A DNA stretch of 10,925 bases, from NCBI GenBank assembly GCA_030649135.1, contig JAUSGI010000001.1:1-10925 (forward strand), written 5' to 3'. Below the pieces are notes generated by a model. That model was not told where the DNA came from, searched no databases, and saw only the letters and a program-made list of their open reading frames with translations. The position numbers were made by a program, and so were the translations under genes. Shown in pieces: positions 1 to 10,925 of this stretch. Positions within the stretch are counted from its first letter, which is position 1. The number at the start of each line of letters is the position of its first letter. Origin of the DNA: a bacterium. Its GTDB lineage: Bacteria; Patescibacteriota; Minisyncoccia; Phycocordibacterales; Zambryskibacteraceae.

Positions 1-84
1 TGTGAGCCTACGGTAAACTCAATGACAAGGACTAAGTCGTAACAAGGCACGGGTAGCGGAAGCTGCTCGTGGAGTAATTCAATT
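1..84 (+). rRNA. rrs: 16S rRNA, 3'-terminal fragment (the gene continues upstream of the window)
   Basis: Contains AAGTCGTAACAAGG, the complement of the universal 1492R site. Next comes CACGGGTAGC-GGAA-GCTGCTCGTG, a 10-bp helix with a GGAA tetraloop homologous to 16S helix 45, maintained by compensatory base changes. TGGA then follows, as in the canonical ...TGGATCACCTCCTTA terminus. Seen directly; the homology is by eye against the E. coli 3' end from memory. Confidence 0.75.
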
Positions 85-93
85 TGAAATCGT

Positions 94-109
94 TGTCTCG
101 ATAGAGACA
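94..109 (+). other. Perfect 6-bp hairpin (TGTCTC-GATA-GAGACA) in the 16S 3' trailer; possible processing stem
   Basis: Inverted repeat seen directly. A second GNRA hairpin, TTCAAC-GCAA-GTTGAA, lies at about 148-163. The function is inferred. Confidence 0.3.
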
Positions 110-221
110 GCTTATAGTGTCGATATTTCAACGCAAGTTGAAGTGGACAATTGCGCCAGTCCTAAAAGACGCATGACAATACGGAAAGACGTTACGGAAC
201 AAAATAGAGAACGATATTAAG

Positions 222-246
222 AAAACCGCCGCAAGGCGGTTTTCTT
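222..246. terminator. Bidirectional intrinsic terminator shared by the 16S transcript (+) and tRNA-Ile (-)
   Basis: AAAA-CCGCC-GCAA-GGCGG-TTTTCTTGTT. A GC stem with a GCAA tetraloop is flanked by an A-tract on one side and a T-tract on the other, so it can terminate on either strand. Confidence 0.7.
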
Positions 247-253
247 GTTGAAG

Positions 254-326
254 TGCGCGCACTAGGGGTCGAACCTAGGACCTTTCGAGTATCAGTCGAA
301 TGCTCTACCAACTGAGCTATGCGCGC
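254..326 (-). tRNA. tRNA-Ile (anticodon GAT), 73 nt, CCA not encoded
   Basis: The reverse complement folds into a canonical cloverleaf. The acceptor is GCGCGCA/TGCGCGC and the D arm is GCTC-AGTTGGTA-GAGC. The anticodon stem is TTCGA/TCGAA with loop CTGATAC (U33, GAU, A37). The T arm is CTAGG-TTCGACC-CCTAG, and the discriminator is A. Confidence 0.9.
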
Positions 327-352
327 GGACAAAACACACAATATCAAGAAAA

Positions 353-380
353 TTGCTCTTTCACAATACGTTGGTATAAT
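353..380 (+). promoter_or_regulatory. Sigma70-type promoter with extended -10: TTGCTC -35, 16-nt spacer, TGgTATAAT
   Basis: TTGCTC is at 353-358 and TGGTATAAT at 372-380. The predicted TSS at about 387-388 falls 1-2 nt before ATG 389, giving a leaderless configuration. Confidence 0.5.
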
Positions 381-388
381 GTCCTTTA

Positions 389-646
389 ATGCCGAAAAAT
401 AAGATTATCATCGCCCTAGGATTACTGATAGCGCTTCTGCCGCTTCTCGGGTTTCCTCGTCTCTGGGAGTCATTTTTCCAAGTAGCGACCGGGCTATCCA
501 TAGTACTTATTCTTGTCTGGGCTAGTATAGATAAACGTCTTTCTCTTAAGGCTAAAGCTCAAAGGCGCCAAATTCATAAACGCCGACAAGCAGAGATAGA
601 AGCCAGCAGGGCGACAGAATCCATCGTTCAGGAAGAAATACTCTGA
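389..646 (+). CDS. Small membrane protein, 85 aa, with two predicted TM helices and a basic C-terminal tail
   Basis: Supplied ORF. Hydrophobic stretches IIIALGLLIALLPLLGF and VATGLSIVLILVWA are followed by a Lys/Arg-rich tail. The stop TGA at 644-646 lies 1 nt before the next ATG, so the genes are coupled. A promoter sits immediately upstream. Confidence 0.45.
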   Translation: MPKNKIIIALGLLIALLPLLGFPRLWESFFQVATGLSIVLILVWASIDKRLSLKAKAQRRQIHKRRQAEIEASRATESIVQEEIL

Positions 647-647
647 C

Positions 648-1814
648 ATGTCGTGGTTCAAGCGAAGTCTCGTATCGGTTACCGCGGCAAGTTTCGCCAT
701 TTTTCTTATCACTATTCTGTTGCCATCGTTTTTCGAATCTACTTATGATGCATCAACCTCTCTCACGAATCAGCCCCAAGTAGCATCTGTTCAAGCTGTG
801 GTAGTCAGTCACCAAGAGACCCCCGTACCTCTTAGGGCGCTTTACATGACTGCTTGCGTGGCCGGTACTCCGTCCTGGCGCGAGAATTTGAAAAAACTGG
901 TTGAGACAACCGAACTCAATGCCGTGGTGATAGATATCAAAGATTACACAGGAGTGGTCTCTTTTCCCAACGAATTTCCCAAGACGAATCTTGGCCACGG
1001 GTGTGTAGTTTCCGATATGTCTGAATTTATACAAACGCTTCATGATACTAAGATTTATGTCATTGGACGCATCTCCGTTTTCCAGGACCCTTCTTACACC
1101 AAACTTTTTCCCGCACTCGCAGTTAGAAAGAAAAGTGATGGTGAAGTCTGGAAGGATTATAAGGGTCTTTCTTTTATTGATGTCGGGGCGAAGCCTTATT
1201 GGGATTATATTGTGGCAATTTCGGAAGAGGCTTACGCACTCGGATTTGATGAGCTCAATTATGACTATGTTCGCTATCCTTCCGATGGCAATATAAAAGA
1301 CGCACTCTATACTTGGGCTGTCGGTACGACTACAAAGCCGGAGATGCTTGAAAGTTTTTTTGAATATCTGAAAGATAATTTGGAACATACGGGAGCCAAA
1401 CTTTCTGTCGACCTTTTCGGCATGACCACTACCGTGGAGAATGATATGAATATTGGACAAGTGCTTGAACTGGCCTTGCCTTATTTTGATTATGTCAGCC
1501 CGATGGTTTATCCTTCGCACTATCCTCCCACGTGGAACGGTTTTGCCAAACCTGCCGAGCACCCGTATGAAGTAGTGAAATTTGCTATGGCAAGAGGCAT
1601 GGAACGCGAACGAACTTTAAATACAGCAAACGGCCTAGCCACATCCACTCCGTCCAAACTTCGGCCTTGGTTACAGGACTTCAATCTCGGTGCGACTTAT
1701 GGACCGGACAAAGTCCGTGCCCAAATCCAAGCAACTTATGATGTCGGTCTCTCAAGTTGGATGATTTGGAACGCGGGGAATAAATATACCACTTCCGCGC
1801 TTTTACCGGAGTAG
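648..1814 (+). CDS. Membrane-anchored TIM-barrel putative glycoside hydrolase (DUF4015/GHL-like family), 388 aa
   Basis: Supplied ORF. An N-terminal signal-anchor helix is present. Motifs NAVVIDIKDYTG and ELNYDYVRYPSDG are typical of the putative-glycosyl-hydrolase DUF4015/GHL families (family assignment from memory, moderate). Codon usage matches the rest of the window. Confidence 0.8.
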   Translation: MSWFKRSLVSVTAASFAIFLITILLPSFFESTYDASTSLTNQPQVASVQAVVVSHQETPVPLRALYMTACVAGTPSWRENLKKLVETTELNAVVIDIKDYTGVVSFPNEFPKTNLGHGCVVSDMSEFIQTLHDTKIYVIGRISVFQDPSYTKLFPALAVRKKSDGEVWKDYKGLSFIDVGAKPYWDYIVAISEEAYALGFDELNYDYVRYPSDGNIKDALYTWAVGTTTKPEMLESFFEYLKDNLEHTGAKLSVDLFGMTTTVENDMNIGQVLELALPYFDYVSPMVYPSHYPPTWNGFAKPAEHPYEVVKFAMARGMERERTLNTANGLATSTPSKLRPWLQDFNLGATYGPDKVRAQIQATYDVGLSSWMIWNAGNKYTTSALLPE

Positions 1815-1815
1815 C

Positions 1816-1844
1816 TTGACAATACCTTCTCTAAGGTGTATAAT
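1816..1844 (+). promoter_or_regulatory. Perfect consensus sigma70 promoter: TTGACA, 17-nt spacer, TATAAT, with TG immediately 5' of the -10
   Basis: TTGACA is at 1816-1821 and TATAAT at 1839-1844. The predicted TSS is at about 1851. Confidence 0.7.
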
Positions 1845-1891
1845 ACTAAGAGACGTAGAATTGGCCGAATTTCCGCTAAGGAGAGCTTAAA

Positions 1892-2236
1892 ATGCTCGCT
1901 TCCACGAAACCCAACAAGGTAAAGCTGTACCGGCATCCCGGACAGGTAACCTCGAGTCTGACTGTGCGCCGAATTCTCTTCGACTTCGAGAAGATGGGGG
2001 TTAAGTGTCTGAGTATCGAGGACGACATCGTGAAGGGGTGGTGCCGCAATCCGGCGACCTACCCGCAGGAATTCCGCGACAAGGTCCTCTACCTCGGGGG
2101 GAAGACCGAGGTTCGAGGAGGCTGCGAGTCGGTACCCTGCCTGACGTGGTTTCCAGGCCTGGTGTCCGAGAAGTGGCTGCCGCTCGATACCAAGATCGGA
2201 GACACGTTCGTTGTCGCTCGACTGGCATCGTTCTAG
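1892..2236 (+). CDS. Hypothetical 114-aa protein encoded in a GC-rich, compositionally foreign island; Cys-containing, no recognisable family
   Basis: A strong SD, AAGGAGAG at 1878-1885, lies 8 nt before ATG 1892, which is the first in-frame start after a TAA. Codon third positions are about 77% G/C while the region is about 58% GC. That period-3 bias argues for coding rather than ncRNA. The stop TAG at 2234-2236 comes just before the terminator. Confidence 0.7.
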   Translation: MLASTKPNKVKLYRHPGQVTSSLTVRRILFDFEKMGVKCLSIEDDIVKGWCRNPATYPQEFRDKVLYLGGKTEVRGGCESVPCLTWFPGLVSEKWLPLDTKIGDTFVVARLASF

Positions 2237-2246
2237 TTCTGCAGTT

Positions 2247-2290
2247 CGCCCGGCACCCACGCAAGTGAGTGCCGGGCGGTTTTGTTTTTT
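2247..2290 (+). terminator. Strong rho-independent terminator
   Basis: CGCCCGGCAC (2247-2256) pairs perfectly with GTGCCGGGCG (2269-2278) as a 10-bp stem with a 12-nt loop. GTTTTGTTTTTT follows. Confidence 0.85.
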
Positions 2291-2292
2291 GT

Positions 2293-2300
2293 TGTATAAT
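2293..2300 (+). promoter_or_regulatory. TGTATAAT extended -10-like element 7 nt upstream of the ATPase ATG; a leaderless configuration, and a direct repeat of 1837-1844
   Basis: The 8-mer is identical to the one in the consensus promoter at 1837-1844. There is no good -35 upstream, because that region is the terminator stem. Confidence 0.4.
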
Positions 2301-2307
2301 TAGCGCG

Positions 2308-3978
2308 ATGGCAGATTCGCCAAAAGACCAAGTAATATATTTTGCCGAGACAGACTCGCGTAATAACCGCAAGAAGTTTGGAATTAAGACCGAAGATCGC
2401 TCCAAACATGTCTATGTCATAGGTAAGACCGGCATGGGCAAGTCCACGCTTCTTGAGAACATGGCTATTCAGGATATTCAAAATGGCAACGGTATTGCTT
2501 TCATCGACCCTCATGGCGGTACGGCAGAAAAACTTTTGGATTTTGTGCCCAAAGAGCGCATCAAGGATGTGTTGTATTTCGCTCCTTTTGATACTGAATA
2601 TCCGGTTGCCTTTAACGTCATGGAAGATGTCGGCGCCAACAAACGGCATCTAGTAGTCAGCGGTCTTATGAGCGCCTTCATGAAGCTCTTCGGGGAAGAG
2701 AGTTTTTCCGACAGAATGCAGTACATTCTCCAGAATACCATTCTTGCTCTTCTTGAGTATCCCGGTTCGACCATGCTCGGTATCAATAAAATGCTCGTTG
2801 ATAAGGAATATCGAAAAAATGTAATAGCGAATATTACTGATCCGTCGGTTAAGGCCTATTGGACACAGGAATATGCCGGTTACACAGAACGTTTCGCCGC
2901 AGAAGCTATACCCGCCATTCAGAACAAGATAGGCCAGTTCACATCAAATCCACTCATCAGAAATATCATTGGTCAAGAGAAATCCAGTTTCAATCTTCGA
3001 AAAATCATGGACGAGAAGAAGATTGTAATCGTCAATCTTTCCAAAGGCCGCGTAGGTGAAGACAATGCCCGCCTGCTTGGCTCGATGTTAATTACCAAAA
3101 TATATCTGGCGGCCATGTCACGCGCCGACGAGCGCGCCTCCTCGCTTGCCAAGCTCCCGCCATTTTTTCTGTACGTAGACGAATTCCAATCATTTGCCGA
3201 CAAGTCCTTCGCCGATATTTTGTCGGAAGCTCGCAAATATAAACTCAACCTGACCATGGCTCATATGTATATAGAACAGATGGAAGAAGAAGTGCGCGAT
3301 GCCGTCTTCGGCAACGTCGGCACCATGATAGTCTTCCGCGTGGGGGCTTACGACGCCGATGTATTGGAAAAGGAATTTGCCCCGGTTTTTATTGCAGAGG
3401 ATTTGGTCAACTTGGGATTGCGCCAAATCTACCTCAAACTGATGATAGACTCGGTGGCATCGCCGCCATTCTCCGCCACCACCATGCCGCCAATGCAGTC
3501 TTCAGAGGTTTCCCACACGGAGGAAATTATAGAATATTCTCGCAAGACCTTCGCCCAGCCAAGAAGTGAGGTTGAGAAACGTATCACCGACTGGCATGAA
3601 GCAGGCCGAGTGGCGGTAAAGACCGCTCCGCCCAGAGTGTTTAGCGCGCCTCCGATAGTTAAACCACAGGAGAAAAGACCGATAGAGAAAGTAATCTTAC
3701 CTGTCATGCCCGCGCATGCAGGGCAGGTAGGGAGTAAAATAGAACCCAAACCGCTTCCAAGCATTTCTCTCGAAACTCTGAAAAAGAGCACTGATAATCA
3801 GCGCAAGCCGGACGCCAAGCATGTCGCTGACCTGCGAGATGCGCTCAGAGCCATGACAGGGAATCAGCCGAAGCTAGAGACACCACCCCAGCCTCAAGTA
3901 CAACCGGTACACCCCCAGCCGACCATAAAGAAGGAACCTAGTCAGGAAGAGCTCAAAAAAATCCTCGATGTCCAATAA
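2308..3978 (+). CDS. TraG/VirD4/TrwB-like (type IV coupling-protein-like) P-loop ATPase with no N-terminal TM segment and a Pro/Gln-rich disordered C-terminal tail
   Basis: Walker A is VIGKTGMGKST, followed by IAFIDPHGG. Walker B is FFLYVDEFQSF, then NVGTMIVFRVG. This pattern is typical of the VirD4/TraG/DUF87 ATPase family. The start is taken as ATG 2308 (MADSPKDQ...) rather than the track's GTG 2269, which lies inside the terminator hairpin. The stop TAA at 3976-3978 overlaps the next gene. Confidence 0.8.
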   Translation: MADSPKDQVIYFAETDSRNNRKKFGIKTEDRSKHVYVIGKTGMGKSTLLENMAIQDIQNGNGIAFIDPHGGTAEKLLDFVPKERIKDVLYFAPFDTEYPVAFNVMEDVGANKRHLVVSGLMSAFMKLFGEESFSDRMQYILQNTILALLEYPGSTMLGINKMLVDKEYRKNVIANITDPSVKAYWTQEYAGYTERFAAEAIPAIQNKIGQFTSNPLIRNIIGQEKSSFNLRKIMDEKKIVIVNLSKGRVGEDNARLLGSMLITKIYLAAMSRADERASSLAKLPPFFLYVDEFQSFADKSFADILSEARKYKLNLTMAHMYIEQMEEEVRDAVFGNVGTMIVFRVGAYDADVLEKEFAPVFIAEDLVNLGLRQIYLKLMIDSVASPPFSATTMPPMQSSEVSHTEEIIEYSRKTFAQPRSEVEKRITDWHEAGRVAVKTAPPRVFSAPPIVKPQEKRPIEKVILPVMPAHAGQVGSKIEPKPLPSISLETLKKSTDNQRKPDAKHVADLRDALRAMTGNQPKLETPPQPQVQPVHPQPTIKKEPSQEELKKILDVQ

Positions 3979-7196: not shown

Positions 7197-7443
7197 AACA
7201 GGGAAGCTGTGGATAAGTATAAGATATTAGAAATTAAATCAACATAGCCATAATAGTCATAAGAATGGGTCAATGCACATTATGAATATAATTATAAAGG
7301 TTTTTCTTAATAAAATTAAAATAGTTTATTAAGGTTTAATAATGTTTGTAAATCTTTCTACTCGGACTTAAAAAGCATAAGTTCACTACTTTTTGAGTCT
7401 TCATTCTATCCTTATTTTATAAGGCATTTTACCAATTTTTACT

Positions 7444-7452
7444 TGGTATAAT
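7444..7452 (+). promoter_or_regulatory. Extended -10 element TGGTATAAT (identical 9-mer to the one at 372-380), with a weak -35
   Basis: It lies at the end of a 275-bp region of about 75% AT. The predicted TSS at about 7459 falls just after an in-frame TAG (7456-7458) and 12 nt before the TTG start. Confidence 0.45.
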
Positions 7453-7470
7453 CATTAGACAACAAATAAT

Positions 7471-10400
7471 TTGAAAGCCCAAAGATTGCTAGCAACTGGA
7501 TTGAGCGGTTTTATAATCGGAATTTTGGTTCTCAGTTTTTTAGGGGTATCTTTAAATAAGGTTTTTGCGGCGGGACCACCCTCAATTTTGAGCTATCAAG
7601 GTCGCCTTACTAATGCTTCAGGAAGTCTTCTTGGTGGTTCATCCGGAACTACTTTCTATTTCAAATTTTCAATATGGAGTGCTGCTAGTGGCGGGGCAAA
7701 GCTCTGGCCAGCATCCGACCCGACATCTTATGGCATTACGGTCAGAGAAGGCGTATTCAATGTAAATATTGGCGACACTACGAATGGTTATCCAGATACG
7801 CTTAATTATGATTTCTCGACGAGCACGAATGTATTTTTAAAGGTTGAAGTTTCTGATGATGATGTTGATTTTGAAACTCTCACTCCGCGACAGCAAATCA
7901 ATTCTGTCGCTTTTGCTCAAGTGGCGGGGGCGGTAGTTAGTGCATCTTCCACCATCGCCAATCTCACTGGTACTAACGCCACTACTACCAATGCTACTTC
8001 CACAAATTTCTTTAGTACTACAGCATCTTCAACAAATCTTTTTTCTGCCGCCATAACTTCAGGCTCTGCTATCTTTGCGAATCTTTTGGTAACCAGCTCA
8101 TCAACGCTCCAAAATTTCACTTTCACAAATGCTACAGGAACTTCCGCTACTACGACCAATCTCTTCTCCACCACTGCATCATCTTCCAACTTATTCACGG
8201 CATTATTCAACGGCGCTGGGTTAGCCACTTGCCAATCGAACAACGTCCTCACCTGGTCTGGTGGTATTTTCGGTTGCGAAACGGACGACAACACCTTCGC
8301 ATGGACTCCCATCTCTTACGGTACTCAAAACGTAGTTGCGACATCGACCGGCCTCTGGCTCAAAGGCTCACCTCTAGGCTTAGTTGCTTCTTCTACTTTC
8401 GCCACTTACTCCACCTCGACCAATGCCACCTCGACTAACTTTTTCTCTACTATCGCTTCGTCTACCAGTCTTTTCACATCAGCTTTGACCGTGAATGGCT
8501 TCGCCTTCACGGTCAATGGCGCTCCCACTTTGAACGACTGGTTCGACCAGTCCCTTAAGATCTCGGACGGGCCCGCTTTTTCCACTATCGATACTGGCCA
8601 TGGGGGTAATGAGCTCTATGCTATGGACCAAAACGTTCGGATCTCCGACGACGTAATCTTCGACGAACTCTTGCTAACCGGTTCTTCCACTTTGAGAAAT
8701 TTCACCTTCTTAAACGCCACCGGCACTTCCGCTACTACCACTAACTTCTTCGCCACGAATGCAAGTTCGACAAATCTCTTTACTACTCGACTTGGCATTG
8801 GCACTTCAAACCCCAGCAGTGCTCTAGAAGTTAATGGTGATATTCGTATCACCGCGAATTCCGGAGGGCGTCTCTACTTTAGTGATAGTTCCACACAAAA
8901 TAGTGCAATCGTGTCGGGAAGTGGTATTACAAGTTGGAGCGACTTGAATTTTCAAACCGGCGGAATCATGAACTTCCAAACCGGTAATGGTCTCGGCACC
9001 GCTACCACTACTCATATGGTTTTGGCTAATAACGGTAATATCGGGATTGGTACCACAACCCCAGGCACCCCGCTTGCTGTCACCGGTGCCGGAGTATTTA
9101 CTGGGTTAGTGACGGCACCCTTTTTCAATGCCACTTCTACAACCGATGTTTCTAATTTCCAACAAGTTCTCGTCCTTGCTTCCTCCACTCTTCAAAACTT
9201 TACTTTCTTAAACGCCACCGGCACTTCTGCTACTACCACTAGCTTCTTTGCTACTGTTTTAAATGCTACTACTGCTTCCACCACTAATCTTTTAGTAACC
9301 AGCTCATCAACGCTCCAAAATTTCACTTTCACAAATGCTACAGGAACTTCCGCCACCACCACCAATCTTTTCTCCACCACCGCATCATCTTCCAACTTAT
9401 TCACAGCATTATTCAACGGTGCCGGTCTTGCCACCTGCCAAACCAACAACGTCCTCACCTGGTCTGGTGGTATTTTCGGTTGCGAAACGGACGACAACAC
9501 CTTCGCATGGACTCCCACCTCTTACGGTACTCAAAACGTAGTTGCGACATCGACCGGTTTATGGCTCAAAGGTTCGCCTCTAGGCTTAATTGCCTCTTCT
9601 ACTTTCGCCACTTACTCCACCTCGACCAATGCTACTTCTACTAATTTCTTTGCCACCACGGCTTCATCCACTAGTCTTTTCGCAGCGGTCTTATCATCAG
9701 GCTCCGCCACCCTCGGCGATCTTTTACTTAACAGCTCATCGACACTCCAAAACTTTACTTTCCTAAATGCTACTGGCACTAACGCTACCACTACCAATAT
9801 TTTCTCCACCACTGCTTCTTCTACTAATCTTTTCACCGCTCTTTTCAATGGCGCTGGTCTTGCTACCTGCCAGACCAACAACATGCTCACTTGGGCTGGA
9901 GGAACATTCGGTTGCGAGGTTGATAATGATACCTTCGAATGGACTCCCACCGCTTGGGGCAACTCTACTTCCACCACTCTCGGTTTCTCGCAAGGTTTCC
10001 TCTCTACCGCTTCTTCTACCATAGACTCCAACTTGATTATCACTGGTAACTCCACTACTACCAACGCCACCACTACCAATATTTTCTCCACCACCGCATC
10101 ATCAACCGGTCTTTTTGCAGCGGTTTTATCATCAGGCTCCGCCACCTTCGGCGATCTTTTAATAAATAGCTCATCGACACTCCAAAACTTTACTTTCTTA
10201 AATGCTACTGGCACTAACGCTACCACTACCAATATTTTCTCCACCACCGCATCCACCACTAACTTCTTTGGTGCTGACTTAACCCCATGTACTTCAAATA
10301 ACGTCTTGACTTGGACAGGGGGGAAGTTTGGCTGTGAAGCAGATGACACCGGTAGTGCCACCTTCGGCAAAGACTGGAACATCTTTACCGTTGGCCGGCT

Positions 10401-10925
10401 TGCCCCGACTACCACAGTGGCTGTTTATGTGGGAGCAACCACCACAGCCTCCCTTACCAACAACTCGTACTTCCAAGTGAATGCGACTTCCACTACTGGA
10501 GACTTAATCGTGGCTTCTTCCTCCCAGGACTTCACTGGCAACTTCTTAAGATTCCTCAATGCCGCTGGTGCAACTCTCTTCTCTGTTGATAATACCGGTT
10601 CTTTGATTGCCGCTTCCACTACTTTCACCAACGCTACCTCGACCAATCTCTTCTCCACCACCGCATCTTCATCGAACCTCTACACCGCTCTCTTTAATGG
10701 CGCCGGTCTTGCCACTTGCCAAACCAACAACGTCCTCACCTGGGCCGGTGGAGAGTTCGGTTGCGAAGCGGATGATAGCGGCAGCGCTGGCTTCGGCAAA
10801 ACTTTTGAAATGTCCAACACCAACTTCCTCGCTCCCACCACCACGGTCTCGGTGATTATCGGCTCCACCACCACCCCGGACAAAAGCGCTTTATTCCAAG
10901 TGAACGCCACCGGCACCACAGGTAA
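7471..10925 (+). CDS. Giant secreted Thr/Ser/Asn-rich tandem-repeat surface protein, 3'-partial (at least 1,151 codons; continues beyond the window)
   Basis: I translated the frame by hand from TTG 7471 (TTG 7486 is an alternative start) to the window end and found no stop codon. The N-terminus, KAQRLLATGLSGFIIGILVLSFLGVSLNKVFA|AG, is a signal peptide. The body consists of repeated modules S-T-L-Q-N-F-T-F-x-N-A-T-G-T-x-A-T-T-T-N-x-F-S-T-T-A-S-S-x-N-L-F followed by A-L-F-N-G-A-G-L-A-T-C-Q-T-N-N-V-L-T-W-x-G-G-x-F-G-C-E-x-D-D. The ORF track omits it because no stop lies in the window and the start is TTG. Confidence 0.85.
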   Translation, partial: MKAQRLLATGLSGFIIGILVLSFLGVSLNKVFAAGPPSILSYQGRLTNASGSLLGGSSGTTFYFKFSIWSAASGGAKLWPASDPTSYGITVREGVFNVNIGDTTNGYPDTLNYDFSTSTNVFLKVEVSDDDVDFETLTPRQQINSVAFAQVAGAVVSASSTIANLTGTNATTTNATSTNFFSTTASSTNLFSAAITSGSAIFANLLVTSSSTLQNFTFTNATGTSATTTNLFSTTASSSNLFTALFNGAGLATCQSNNVLTWSGGIFGCETDDNTFAWTPISYGTQNVVATSTGLWLKGSPLGLVASSTFATYSTSTNATSTNFFSTIASSTSLFTSALTVNGFAFTVNGAPTLNDWFDQSLKISDGPAFSTIDTGHGGNELYAMDQNVRISDDVIFDELLLTGSSTLRNFTFLNATGTSATTTNFFATNASSTNLFTTRLGIGTSNPSSALEVNGDIRITANSGGRLYFSDSSTQNSAIVSGSGITSWSDLNFQTGGIMNFQTGNGLGTATTTHMVLANNGNIGIGTTTPGTPLAVTGAGVFTGLVTAPFFNATSTTDVSNFQQVLVLASSTLQNFTFLNATGTSATTTSFFATVLNATTASTTNLLVTSSSTLQNFTFTNATGTSATTTNLFSTTASSSNLFTALFNGAGLATCQTNNVLTWSGGIFGCETDDNTFAWTPTSYGTQNVVATSTGLWLKGSPLGLIASSTFATYSTSTNATSTNFFATTASSTSLFAAVLSSGSATLGDLLLNSSSTLQNFTFLNATGTNATTTNIFSTTASSTNLFTALFNGAGLATCQTNNMLTWAGGTFGCEVDNDTFEWTPTAWGNSTSTTLGFSQGFLSTASSTIDSNLIITGNSTTTNATTTNIFSTTASSTGLFAAVLSSGSATFGDLLINSSSTLQNFTFLNATGTNATTTNIFSTTASTTNFFGADLTPCTSNNVLTWTGGKFGCEADDTGSATFGKDWNIFTVGRLAPTTTVAVYVGATTTASLTNNSYFQVNATSTTGDLIVASSSQDFTGNFLRFLNAAGATLFSVDNTGSLIAASTTFTNATSTNLFSTTASSSNLYTALFNGAGLATCQTNNVLTWAGGEFGCEADDSGSAGFGKTFEMSNTNFLAPTTTVSVIIGSTTTPDKSALFQVNATGTTG
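8083..8476 (+). repeat. Intragenic direct repeat, copy A (about 390 nt), paired with 9289..9682
   Basis: The offset is exactly 1206 nt with no indels. Roughly nine in ten nucleotides are identical by eye across the compared core (8091-8230 vs 9297-9436). Nearly all differences are synonymous third positions, and the proteins differ at only about 3 of roughly 118 residues. Confidence 0.8.
9289..9682 (+). repeat. Intragenic direct repeat, copy B, paired with 8083..8476
   Basis: See copy A. Confidence 0.8.

Follow-up and report, generated by a model that had tools for sequence, protein, structure and literature searches.

An apparently foreign GC-rich gene cassette in a Parcubacteria contig is probably an orphan relative of diversity-generating retroelement targets

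How does a single GC-rich gene, furnished with a textbook promoter, a Shine-Dalgarno (SD) motif and a strong terminator, come to lie in a bacterium whose 16S rRNA has no anti-SD sequence? The question is raised by a small island in a stretch of 10,925 nucleotides (hereafter the window, which is the whole stretch of DNA analysed here), one entire contig of a metagenome-assembled genome (MAG) at NCBI (JAUSGI010000001.1, assembly GCA_030649135.1), where the island's protein is annotated. The initial annotation took the island to have come recently, by horizontal transfer, from an SD-using donor of high GC, or else to be a chimeric or engineered insertion. The answer that we consider probable is a different one: that 1815-2279 is a genuine accessory one-gene cassette of Parcubacteria, a group in the CPR (candidate phyla radiation), and that its gene is an orphan and divergent member of a CPR-restricted family of lectin-fold proteins that serve as targets of diversity-generating retroelements (DGRs).

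The compositional contrast itself is robust. The GC content of the window as a whole is 45.4%, and that of the open reading frame (ORF) at 1892-2236, which encodes 114 aa, is 58.6%, with values at the first, second and third codon positions (GC1, GC2, GC3) of 0.57, 0.43 and 0.77. The shift is confined to the third, synonymous position, where 27 of 115 sites are A or T and where the remaining genes of the window range from 0.40 to 0.54; lysine codons are AAG rather than AAA by 9 to 1, as against 68 to 88 in the other window genes, and leucine is encoded by CTG or CTC only. The expression signals are equally clear. TTGACA at 1816 and TATAAT at 1839, 17 bp apart, form the sole 12/12 promoter match in the window (0/200 shuffles gave one), and transcription would start near 1851, giving a leader that is predicted to fold only weakly (-5.6 kcal/mol) and that carries AAGGAG (1878-1883), with 8 nt separating this motif from the start codon, the ATG at 1892. 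Beginning 10 nt past the stop codon, a hairpin at 2246-2279 of the form UCGCCCGGCAC-C-CAC-GCAA-GUG-A-GUGCCGGGCGG, with a stem of 11 plus 3 bp, is followed by TTTTGTTTTTTGTT; the T-tract after the stem reads UUUUGUUUUUUGUU and overlaps the region where the promoter of the following gene lies. The combination of a GC-rich stem-loop and a U-tract is that of a predicted intrinsic terminator, which a simple terminator scan missed because its loop rule allows 3-8 nt only. In all of this the initial annotation was accurate, down to the count of third positions, the perfect promoter, the spacing of the SD motif and the terminator stem with its U-tract, and its description of a discrete, self-contained and compositionally deviant cassette is borne out. 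Of the span that it proposed, 1845-2292, the left limit has to be moved: alignment to relatives with an empty site places the borders at ~1814/1815 and 2277/2279, so that the real start lies some 30 bp earlier and the promoter falls inside the cassette.

Its remark that the host 16S rRNA lacks an anti-SD, and that the AAGGAG leader is therefore at odds with its host, also holds. Within the first 84 positions of the window the 3' end of the 16S rRNA reads ...GUGGAGUAAUUCAAUU in place of the expected GGAUCACCUCCUUA, with the tail GGAGUAAUUCAAUU standing where GAUCACCUCCUUA would be expected; no CCTCC occurs in window positions 1-400, and the tail GGAGUAAUUCAAUUUGAAA, likewise without CCUCC, is found in every relative with a readable 16S 3' end. 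This agrees with the report that the anti-SD has been lost in about half of Parcubacteria (PMC9297842). Since CCUCC is missing, canonical SD:anti-SD pairing is impossible in this host, and pairing of the leader with the unusual 16S tail amounts to matches of 5-6 nt, which is the chance level. The alternative tail GUGGAGUAAUUCAAUUUGAAA is conserved between the window and three relatives (L002 at ~540-600, L038 at ~2825-2885 and L041 at ~190-250). The other genes of the window have no SD motif. Two of them, at 389 and 2308, begin 7-8 nt past a TATAAT (375-391 and 2295-2310) and are for that reason apparently transcribed as leaderless mRNAs, an arrangement of TATAAT and start codon that is seen in L002, L038 and L039 as well.

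Borders as sharp as these, together with signals taken as if from a textbook, would be expected of a chimeric assembly or of an engineered or contaminant insertion, an explanation that we regard as next to impossible. An independent Logan assembly of SRR13727527 is identical to the window from 297 to 3240 and so reproduces both junctions exactly, and on its right side the island passes into the following gene's native, leaderless promoter. Moreover, the same cassette stands at the same junction in a Parcubacteria MAG from another study (JBBDZK010000019.1, locus L002), at a nucleotide divergence of 25%. Gene order in L002 is like that of the window (16S, tRNA-Ile, a gene for 85 aa, a DUF4015 gene and the small gene), and its cassette begins directly past the DUF4015 stop codon. 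It shares the promoter (there TTGACA-18-TATAAT), the leader motif CTAAGGAG, the full-length reading frame and a nearly identical hairpin, the spacer around which is not conserved. All eight positions of CTAAGGAG are kept whereas the remaining leader is only about half conserved, and the motif is on that account to be regarded as under selection. In the NCBI annotation the orthologue (2481-2825) starts at an internal ATG and has 86 aa; the conserved SD-like motif and 28 conserved codons upstream of that ATG indicate a full-length protein of 114 aa starting at the GTG at 2481. A search of genome contigs for relatives returned L002 only.

L002 also bears on what the island encodes. Structured non-coding RNAs often form GC-rich islands in low-GC genomes, and the folding z-score of the transcript is -2.8, a value that includes the terminator hairpin; one might accordingly suppose that the cassette produces such an RNA from its own promoter and terminator and that the ORF is incidental. 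There is hardly any probability left for this reading. The reading frame is conserved, and differences between the window gene and its orthologue are distributed over the three codon positions as 23/16/47, with dN/dS of 0.18/0.87, a ratio of ~0.2; on this codon-position pattern the ORF is to be taken as protein-coding and under purifying selection, as the initial annotation had maintained from the period-3 bias. Rfam scans of the island at gathering and permissive thresholds found no RNA family, and the protein, as described below, has homologues down to 30% identity and a confident structural model. An antisense ORF of 173 codons (1736-2260) was considered as well and rejected, as it is not conserved in L002.

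What, then, is the protein? Searches of Pfam, PHROGs, NCBIfam, PADLOC and PDB sequences gave nothing significant. An exhaustive hidden Markov model search over 1.84 billion cluster representatives, with a cut-off of E<=1e-3, yielded 47 relatives, mostly of 100-190 aa, with the family motif ELYxHPxQ...SLEDExVKGWxxNPxTYPEEFKxKxVFLWKS...VAxLxW..GRVVVxWxWL...W...PALLAS. The window protein matches the family profile at E=4.5e-26, and its identity to members is 30-36%. Searches of IMG/VR, of INPHARED phages and of PLSDB plasmids came back without relatives; all relatives detected lie in low-GC contexts, and several stand beside intron-bearing rRNA genes, as in CPR.

The nature of the family is revealed by its more complete loci. 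The family gene is followed by bAvd (PF22296) and RVT_1 genes in L005/L006 and in L007, and its last ~125 nt are repeated 444-506 bp downstream in L005, L007 and L008. Between these two copies, the variable region (VR) and the template repeat (TR), every mismatch falls at a template adenine (20/20 in L005, 16/16 in L007 and 13/13 in L008), and the copies downstream have the AAC/AAT codons that are typical of templates, as in ...VAYLYWNDDRVIVNWNWLENRWNGNNPALLA. Further VR/TR pairs occur in L009, L012, L014, L019, L022-L024, L028 and L031. L004 has no template close by; its gene is 87% identical to the template of L007, a locus of the same assembly, and 16/16 of the mismatches fall at A, the mark of a remote DGR target. 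Because of the adjacent bAvd and RVT_1, the adenine-only mismatches and the remote target L004, the family is identified as one of DGR variable proteins of CPR bacteria, and the profile match makes the window protein a homologue of demonstrated DGR targets. This fits with published descriptions of a CPR-specific DGR clade (PMC8144416) and of small DGR targets that consist of a lone C-type lectin fold, of remote targets and of GC-rich inverted repeats (PMC5758913). An AlphaFold model of the window protein based on a 25-sequence alignment (pLDDT 80.5, pTM 0.70), used instead of one from a 2-sequence alignment (pLDDT 39), predicts just such a C-type-lectin fold, matching TvpA and Mtd; as read from its sequence, the protein has no signal peptide and no transmembrane segment.

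Several loci in which a TR lies 300-500 bp downstream of the target gene depart from the simple arrangement. In the usual DGR layout, the TR adjoins the reverse transcriptase (RT). No RT was called within 6 kb in L008 (6001-6985), and tblastn found neither RT nor Avd in L009, L012, L014, L019, L022-L024 and L028, which are mostly short contigs, with L023 extending ~3.5 kb past the template. There is also a recurrent tie to rRNA loci. The family gene lies directly downstream of 5S rRNA in L011 (833-938), L014 (642-747), L015 (1348-1453) and L022 (12-117), and in the window and L002 it is ~1.5-1.8 kb downstream of 16S rRNA and tRNA-Ile.

Membership of this family puts the foreign appearance of the cassette in another light. 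We compared composition over 24 loci with that of neighbouring ORFs. GC3 of the family genes averages 0.73 against 0.47 in the other ORFs and is higher in 23/24 loci. The non-VR third positions are shifted too (A.12, C.37, G.34, T.17, as against.24,.24,.23,.30 in other ORFs), and thus the shift spans the whole gene, with an additional depletion of adenine in the family VRs (A3 =.05). Avoidance of adenine was considered as the sole cause of high GC3 and rejected, A and T being reduced in equal proportion (non-VR A3/T3 is 0.74 vs 0.78 in the host). The Avd and RT genes of the same cassettes have a GC of only 0.34-0.43, lower than that of the host, from which it follows that the composition is specific to the gene and not to an element or a donor. 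Expression signals recur in the same way. Most family genes have a TTGACA or TTGACT -35 element, a -10-like hexamer of varying quality and a leader of ~45-105 nt; AAGGA/AGGAG stands 5-9 nt before the start in ~22/25 non-redundant family loci as against 8/105 other ORFs (at most 21/105 under an equally liberal rule), and GC hairpins with T-tracts follow the family genes in 4/4 loci examined (L004, L005, L007 and L008). Seen as they are across the family in low-GC hosts, the high GC3, strong promoter, SD-like motif and hairpin are best described as family traits and not as a donor signature.

It is against this background that a recent acquisition from a high-GC, SD-using donor outside CPR has to be judged. 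The GC3 of 0.77 against ~0.46, the skewed lysine codons, the SD-like motif in a host without an anti-SD and the absence of the cassette from the same site in the closest relatives all lend themselves to such an account, and yet we hold it to be very improbable. The L002 orthologue, at the same junction, has a GC3 of 0.75-0.78 among neighbours of 0.42-0.59; a low-GC relative with the same gene in the same composition is precisely what the initial annotation had said would speak against its own proposal. Protein identity between the window and L002 is 70% for the cassette, 77% for DUF4015 and 65% for the 85-aa gene. As the L002 copy shares the junction and has diverged to an extent (dS 0.87) comparable to that of the flanks, the cassette appears to be about as old at the DUF4015 locus as the genes around it, and is not recent. 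The supposed donor fares no better. High GC3 is kept across family members that are 30-50% identical and whose linked Avd and RT genes have a low GC content, the searches brought up nothing resembling a donor outside CPR-like contexts and no relatives in the phage, plasmid and viral collections, and the promoter fits the host's own style.

The SD-like motif is in part of the family embedded in a larger element. The family genes in L008, L009, L010-L014, L018-L023, L026 and L027 are preceded by a conserved leader RNA, ~45 nt long (for example L012 3388-3462); it takes the form GGCAAACCUUAAG, a hairpin, AUAAGAGGYAAGCC and then AAGGAG, and has three helices with 96.5% of cells paired and compensatory changes in 5/12 pairs, and no Rfam match. 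A second, different conserved leader is found in L015, L024, L028 and L031. Both are candidate new cis-regulatory RNAs of DGR target genes. When the covariance model of the first (R1) was run on the window leader, the element was absent, as it also is from L002.

The locus downstream of DUF4015 has a history of its own. L038 and L039, which are nearest to the window by their DUF4015 proteins (81-82% aa identity), have its gene order (85 aa, DUF4015, an ATPase of type IV secretion system (T4SS) type and a GT4 glycosyltransferase) and lack the cassette: the spacer between DUF4015 and ATPase is 28-30 bp, alignment to the window leaves a single clean gap of 464 bp from the DUF4015 stop codon to the end of the hairpin, and the same TTGTATAAT-N7-ATG directly follows DUF4015. 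L041 (2272-2973) and L042 (2700-3404) have a different gene at the same site, encoding proteins of 233 and 234 aa that are 53% identical to each other and have no Pfam, NCBIfam or PADLOC match; its GC3 is 0.59 and 0.62, it has an SD-like motif (GAAAGGAG or GGGAGG) and it ends in a GC hairpin terminator. The comparison with syntenic loci that the initial annotation called for thus yields two empty sites, two with another cassette and one with the same cassette, and the site past DUF4015 appears to be a hotspot for such cassettes. An integron cassette or integrative element was rejected, there being no integrase or other mobility gene and no flanking repeats next to the cassette. L002 is farther from the window (76%) than are the empty-site genomes, so the distribution calls for two gains at one site or for several losses. 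The divergence of the cassette, close to that of the flanks, speaks, though not decisively, for an old presence with later losses. In L041, at ~450-660, the 3' end of a tRNA (CCCCAAGTGCGCGCACC) is duplicated ~130 nt downstream of the tRNA gene, which may be the scar of a tRNA-integrated element.

Is the window copy still being diversified? A repeat of 2096-2261 was sought across the 10.9-kb window and in L002 and none was found; the VR-equivalent does not match the family templates of L005, L007 and L008; there is no RVT_1 or bAvd among the scanned window genes, and tblastn with the RT and Avd proteins of L005 and L007 found nothing in the window. In the comparison of the window with L002, no part of the gene is better conserved than the VR-equivalent. 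Its nucleotide differences are mostly synonymous, and of the ten codons aligned to template AAC/AAT just two differ (C78H and T100A), as against 6/40 of the others; A at third positions, at 0.16, is not depleted as it is in the family VRs (0.05). Scaffold residues are altered as well, LWKS to LGGK and PALLAS to VARLAS. Since the contig has no TR, Avd or RT and the VR-equivalent is under what looks like ordinary purifying selection, the window copy is most likely a fixed, no-longer-diversified lectin-fold module left from, or derived from, a DGR target. Loci that are identical duplicates of one another (L015/16/17, L026/27, L029/30, L012/18 and L005/6) are uninformative on ongoing diversification.

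A remote but active DGR, with TR, Avd and RT elsewhere in the genome rewriting the 3' end of the gene and the hairpin serving in target recognition, is an alternative that we think unlikely. The family offers a precedent in L004, targeted by the L007 template, and several loci with a target gene and a template have no RT within reach. The hairpin, which occupies the position where DGR targets bear a GC-rich inverted repeat and which also has the look of an intrinsic terminator of the ordinary kind, shows strong conservation in L002, and the 10.9-kb contig was all that was available of the genome. What tells against continuing diversification is the conservation just described, both in the mostly synonymous changes and in the low number of differing variable-equivalent codons, together with the undepleted third-position adenine, the lack of similarity to known family templates and the changes in conserved VR scaffold residues.

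Our preferred reading, of an orphan and fixed member of a DGR-target family in a genuine accessory cassette, has its own difficulties. The cognate template repeat and RT were not found for the window copy within 10.9 kb, and a template may act in trans; the LGGK and VARLAS substitutions could equally mark a side branch that was never diversified. The cassette is missing in the nearest relatives, and it may have moved laterally between CPR lineages, with two gains rather than several losses.

If that reading is correct, the cassette would be transcribed from its own consensus sigma-70 promoter to the hairpin and T-tract, producing an mRNA with a weakly structured leader of ~40 nt that bears the conserved AAGGAG, and the terminator hairpin would act immediately before the following gene with its leaderless promoter; expression may be high. 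In active members of the family, adenine-specific mutagenic retrohoming rewrites the last ~125 nt from the template repeat that lies downstream. On the analogy of DGR variable proteins, the window protein may bind a ligand through the surface of its C-terminal third. The coordinates of these features are collected in Table 1.

Table 1. Features of the cassette and its immediate context in the window.
Feature	Position	Strand	Remarks
Host 16S rRNA 3' end, no anti-SD CCUCC	1..84	+	Rfam SSU match, model positions 1450-1533
Sigma-70-type promoter, TTGACA-17-TATAAT	1816..1844	+	Starts 2 nt past the DUF4015 stop codon
5' leader, ~40 nt, with SD-like CTAAGGAG (1876-1883)	1851..1891	+	8 nt ahead of the ATG
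Gene, 114-aa protein with predicted C-type-lectin fold (NCBI: hypothetical protein Q7R69_00020)	1892..2236	+	Divergent member of CPR family of DGR variable proteins
VR-equivalent of active family members, last 45 codons; apparently fixed here	2099..2233	+	Alignment to VRs of L005, L007, L008 and others
GC-rich hairpin with GCAA loop, and T-tract; predicted intrinsic terminator	2246..2292	+	dG -28.1 kcal/mol
TATAAT 7 nt ahead of ATG (2308) of the downstream T4SS-type ATPase gene; apparent leaderless start	2295..2310	+	Read from sequence; right island border

It is tempting to go further and to suggest that Parcubacteria without an anti-SD maintain, over long evolutionary times, a distinct class of accessory cassettes marked by a consensus promoter, an AAGGAG-type leader and GC-shifted synonymous codons, a class that would comprise the family of DGR targets together with, at the least, the unrelated 233-aa gene of L041 and L042. 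We offer this as a speculation with the odds well against it. Were it true, ribosomes might be recruited without SD:anti-SD pairing, for instance by a protein or an alternative rRNA contact that recognizes AAGGAG, and the cassettes would form a special expression class. Alternatively, whole target genes might be reshaped by a process that is gene-specific and linked to retrohoming, GC-biased repair of cDNA-mediated conversion for example, and the window cassette would then be a fossil bearing that footprint.

That an island which seems foreign or even engineered turns out most probably to be an orphan relative of DGR variable proteins suggests that, in CPR genomes, a compositional island cannot be taken for a recent transfer until its gene family has been examined. 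Three aspects were not found in the literature consulted: that the GC3 of small CPR DGR target genes exceeds that of their hosts by ~0.26 over the full length of the gene, with a low GC content in the linked Avd and RT genes; that such genes have conserved SD-like leaders even in hosts whose 16S rRNA lacks an anti-SD; and that copies which are fixed and have no template survive as transcription units of their own. All three bear on the way translation starts in Parcubacteria that lack the anti-SD, and on the expression, maintenance and retirement of DGR targets.

The remainder of the window has features of separate interest. The tRNA-Ile(GAT) gene at 253-326 is on the minus strand, whereas L002 and L038-L042 have the tRNA of this 16S-to-DUF4015 neighbourhood on the plus strand (confirmed as tRNA-Ile only in L002); the difference reflects either a local inversion of the tRNA gene alone or an assembly quirk, the Logan assembly beginning at 297 and so leaving the left border of the tRNA gene outside its coverage. 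The cassette is neighboured by an adjacent DUF4015 glycoside hydrolase and by glycosyltransferases, and between the last glycosyltransferase gene and a long repetitive ORF lies an AT-rich spacer at 7200-7500 (GC ~25%) with several TATAAT boxes. The long ORF (7459-10925, plus strand, running off the end) encodes at least 1155 aa with an N-terminal hydrophobic segment and many Thr/Ser/Asn-rich repeats, in repeat units of ~59 and 150-430 nt, and has a strongly negative GC skew; it is likely a large repetitive surface protein, and the short minus-strand ORFs over the same region are probably spurious.

Comparison with known systems brings out what is familiar in the cassette and what is not. Like genomic islets, the horizontally acquired single-gene islands, it combines a deviant composition with its own promoter and terminator and appears as a clean 464-bp indel at a fixed intergenic site, where relatives may have another GC-rich cassette; it differs from them in having no flanking direct repeats and no integrase or mobility gene, in having an orthologue as diverged as the flanks, and in a composition that belongs to the gene family and not to a donor. 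Canonical SD-led bacterial genes likewise have an AAGGAG 8 nt before the ATG that is kept in the orthologue and recurs in the family, but here the host 16S tail, GGAGUAAUUCAAUUUGAAA, has no CCUCC and neighbouring genes are apparently leaderless after TATAAT. A third likeness is to DGR targets. The predicted fold resembles that of the lectin-fold targets Mtd of Bordetella phage (PDB 1yu0) and TvpA of Treponema denticola (2y3c), with which the window protein has no sequence similarity, so that the fold match is the only link; it is homologous to demonstrated DGR targets of CPR genomes, it is small, as are the smallest targets reported, among them those that consist of the lectin fold alone (PMC5758913), and a GC-rich hairpin stands just past the gene. 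Unlike such targets, the window copy is not accompanied on its contig by a cognate template repeat, an Avd or an RT, several of its scaffold residues are altered, and its VR-equivalent is fixed between orthologues.

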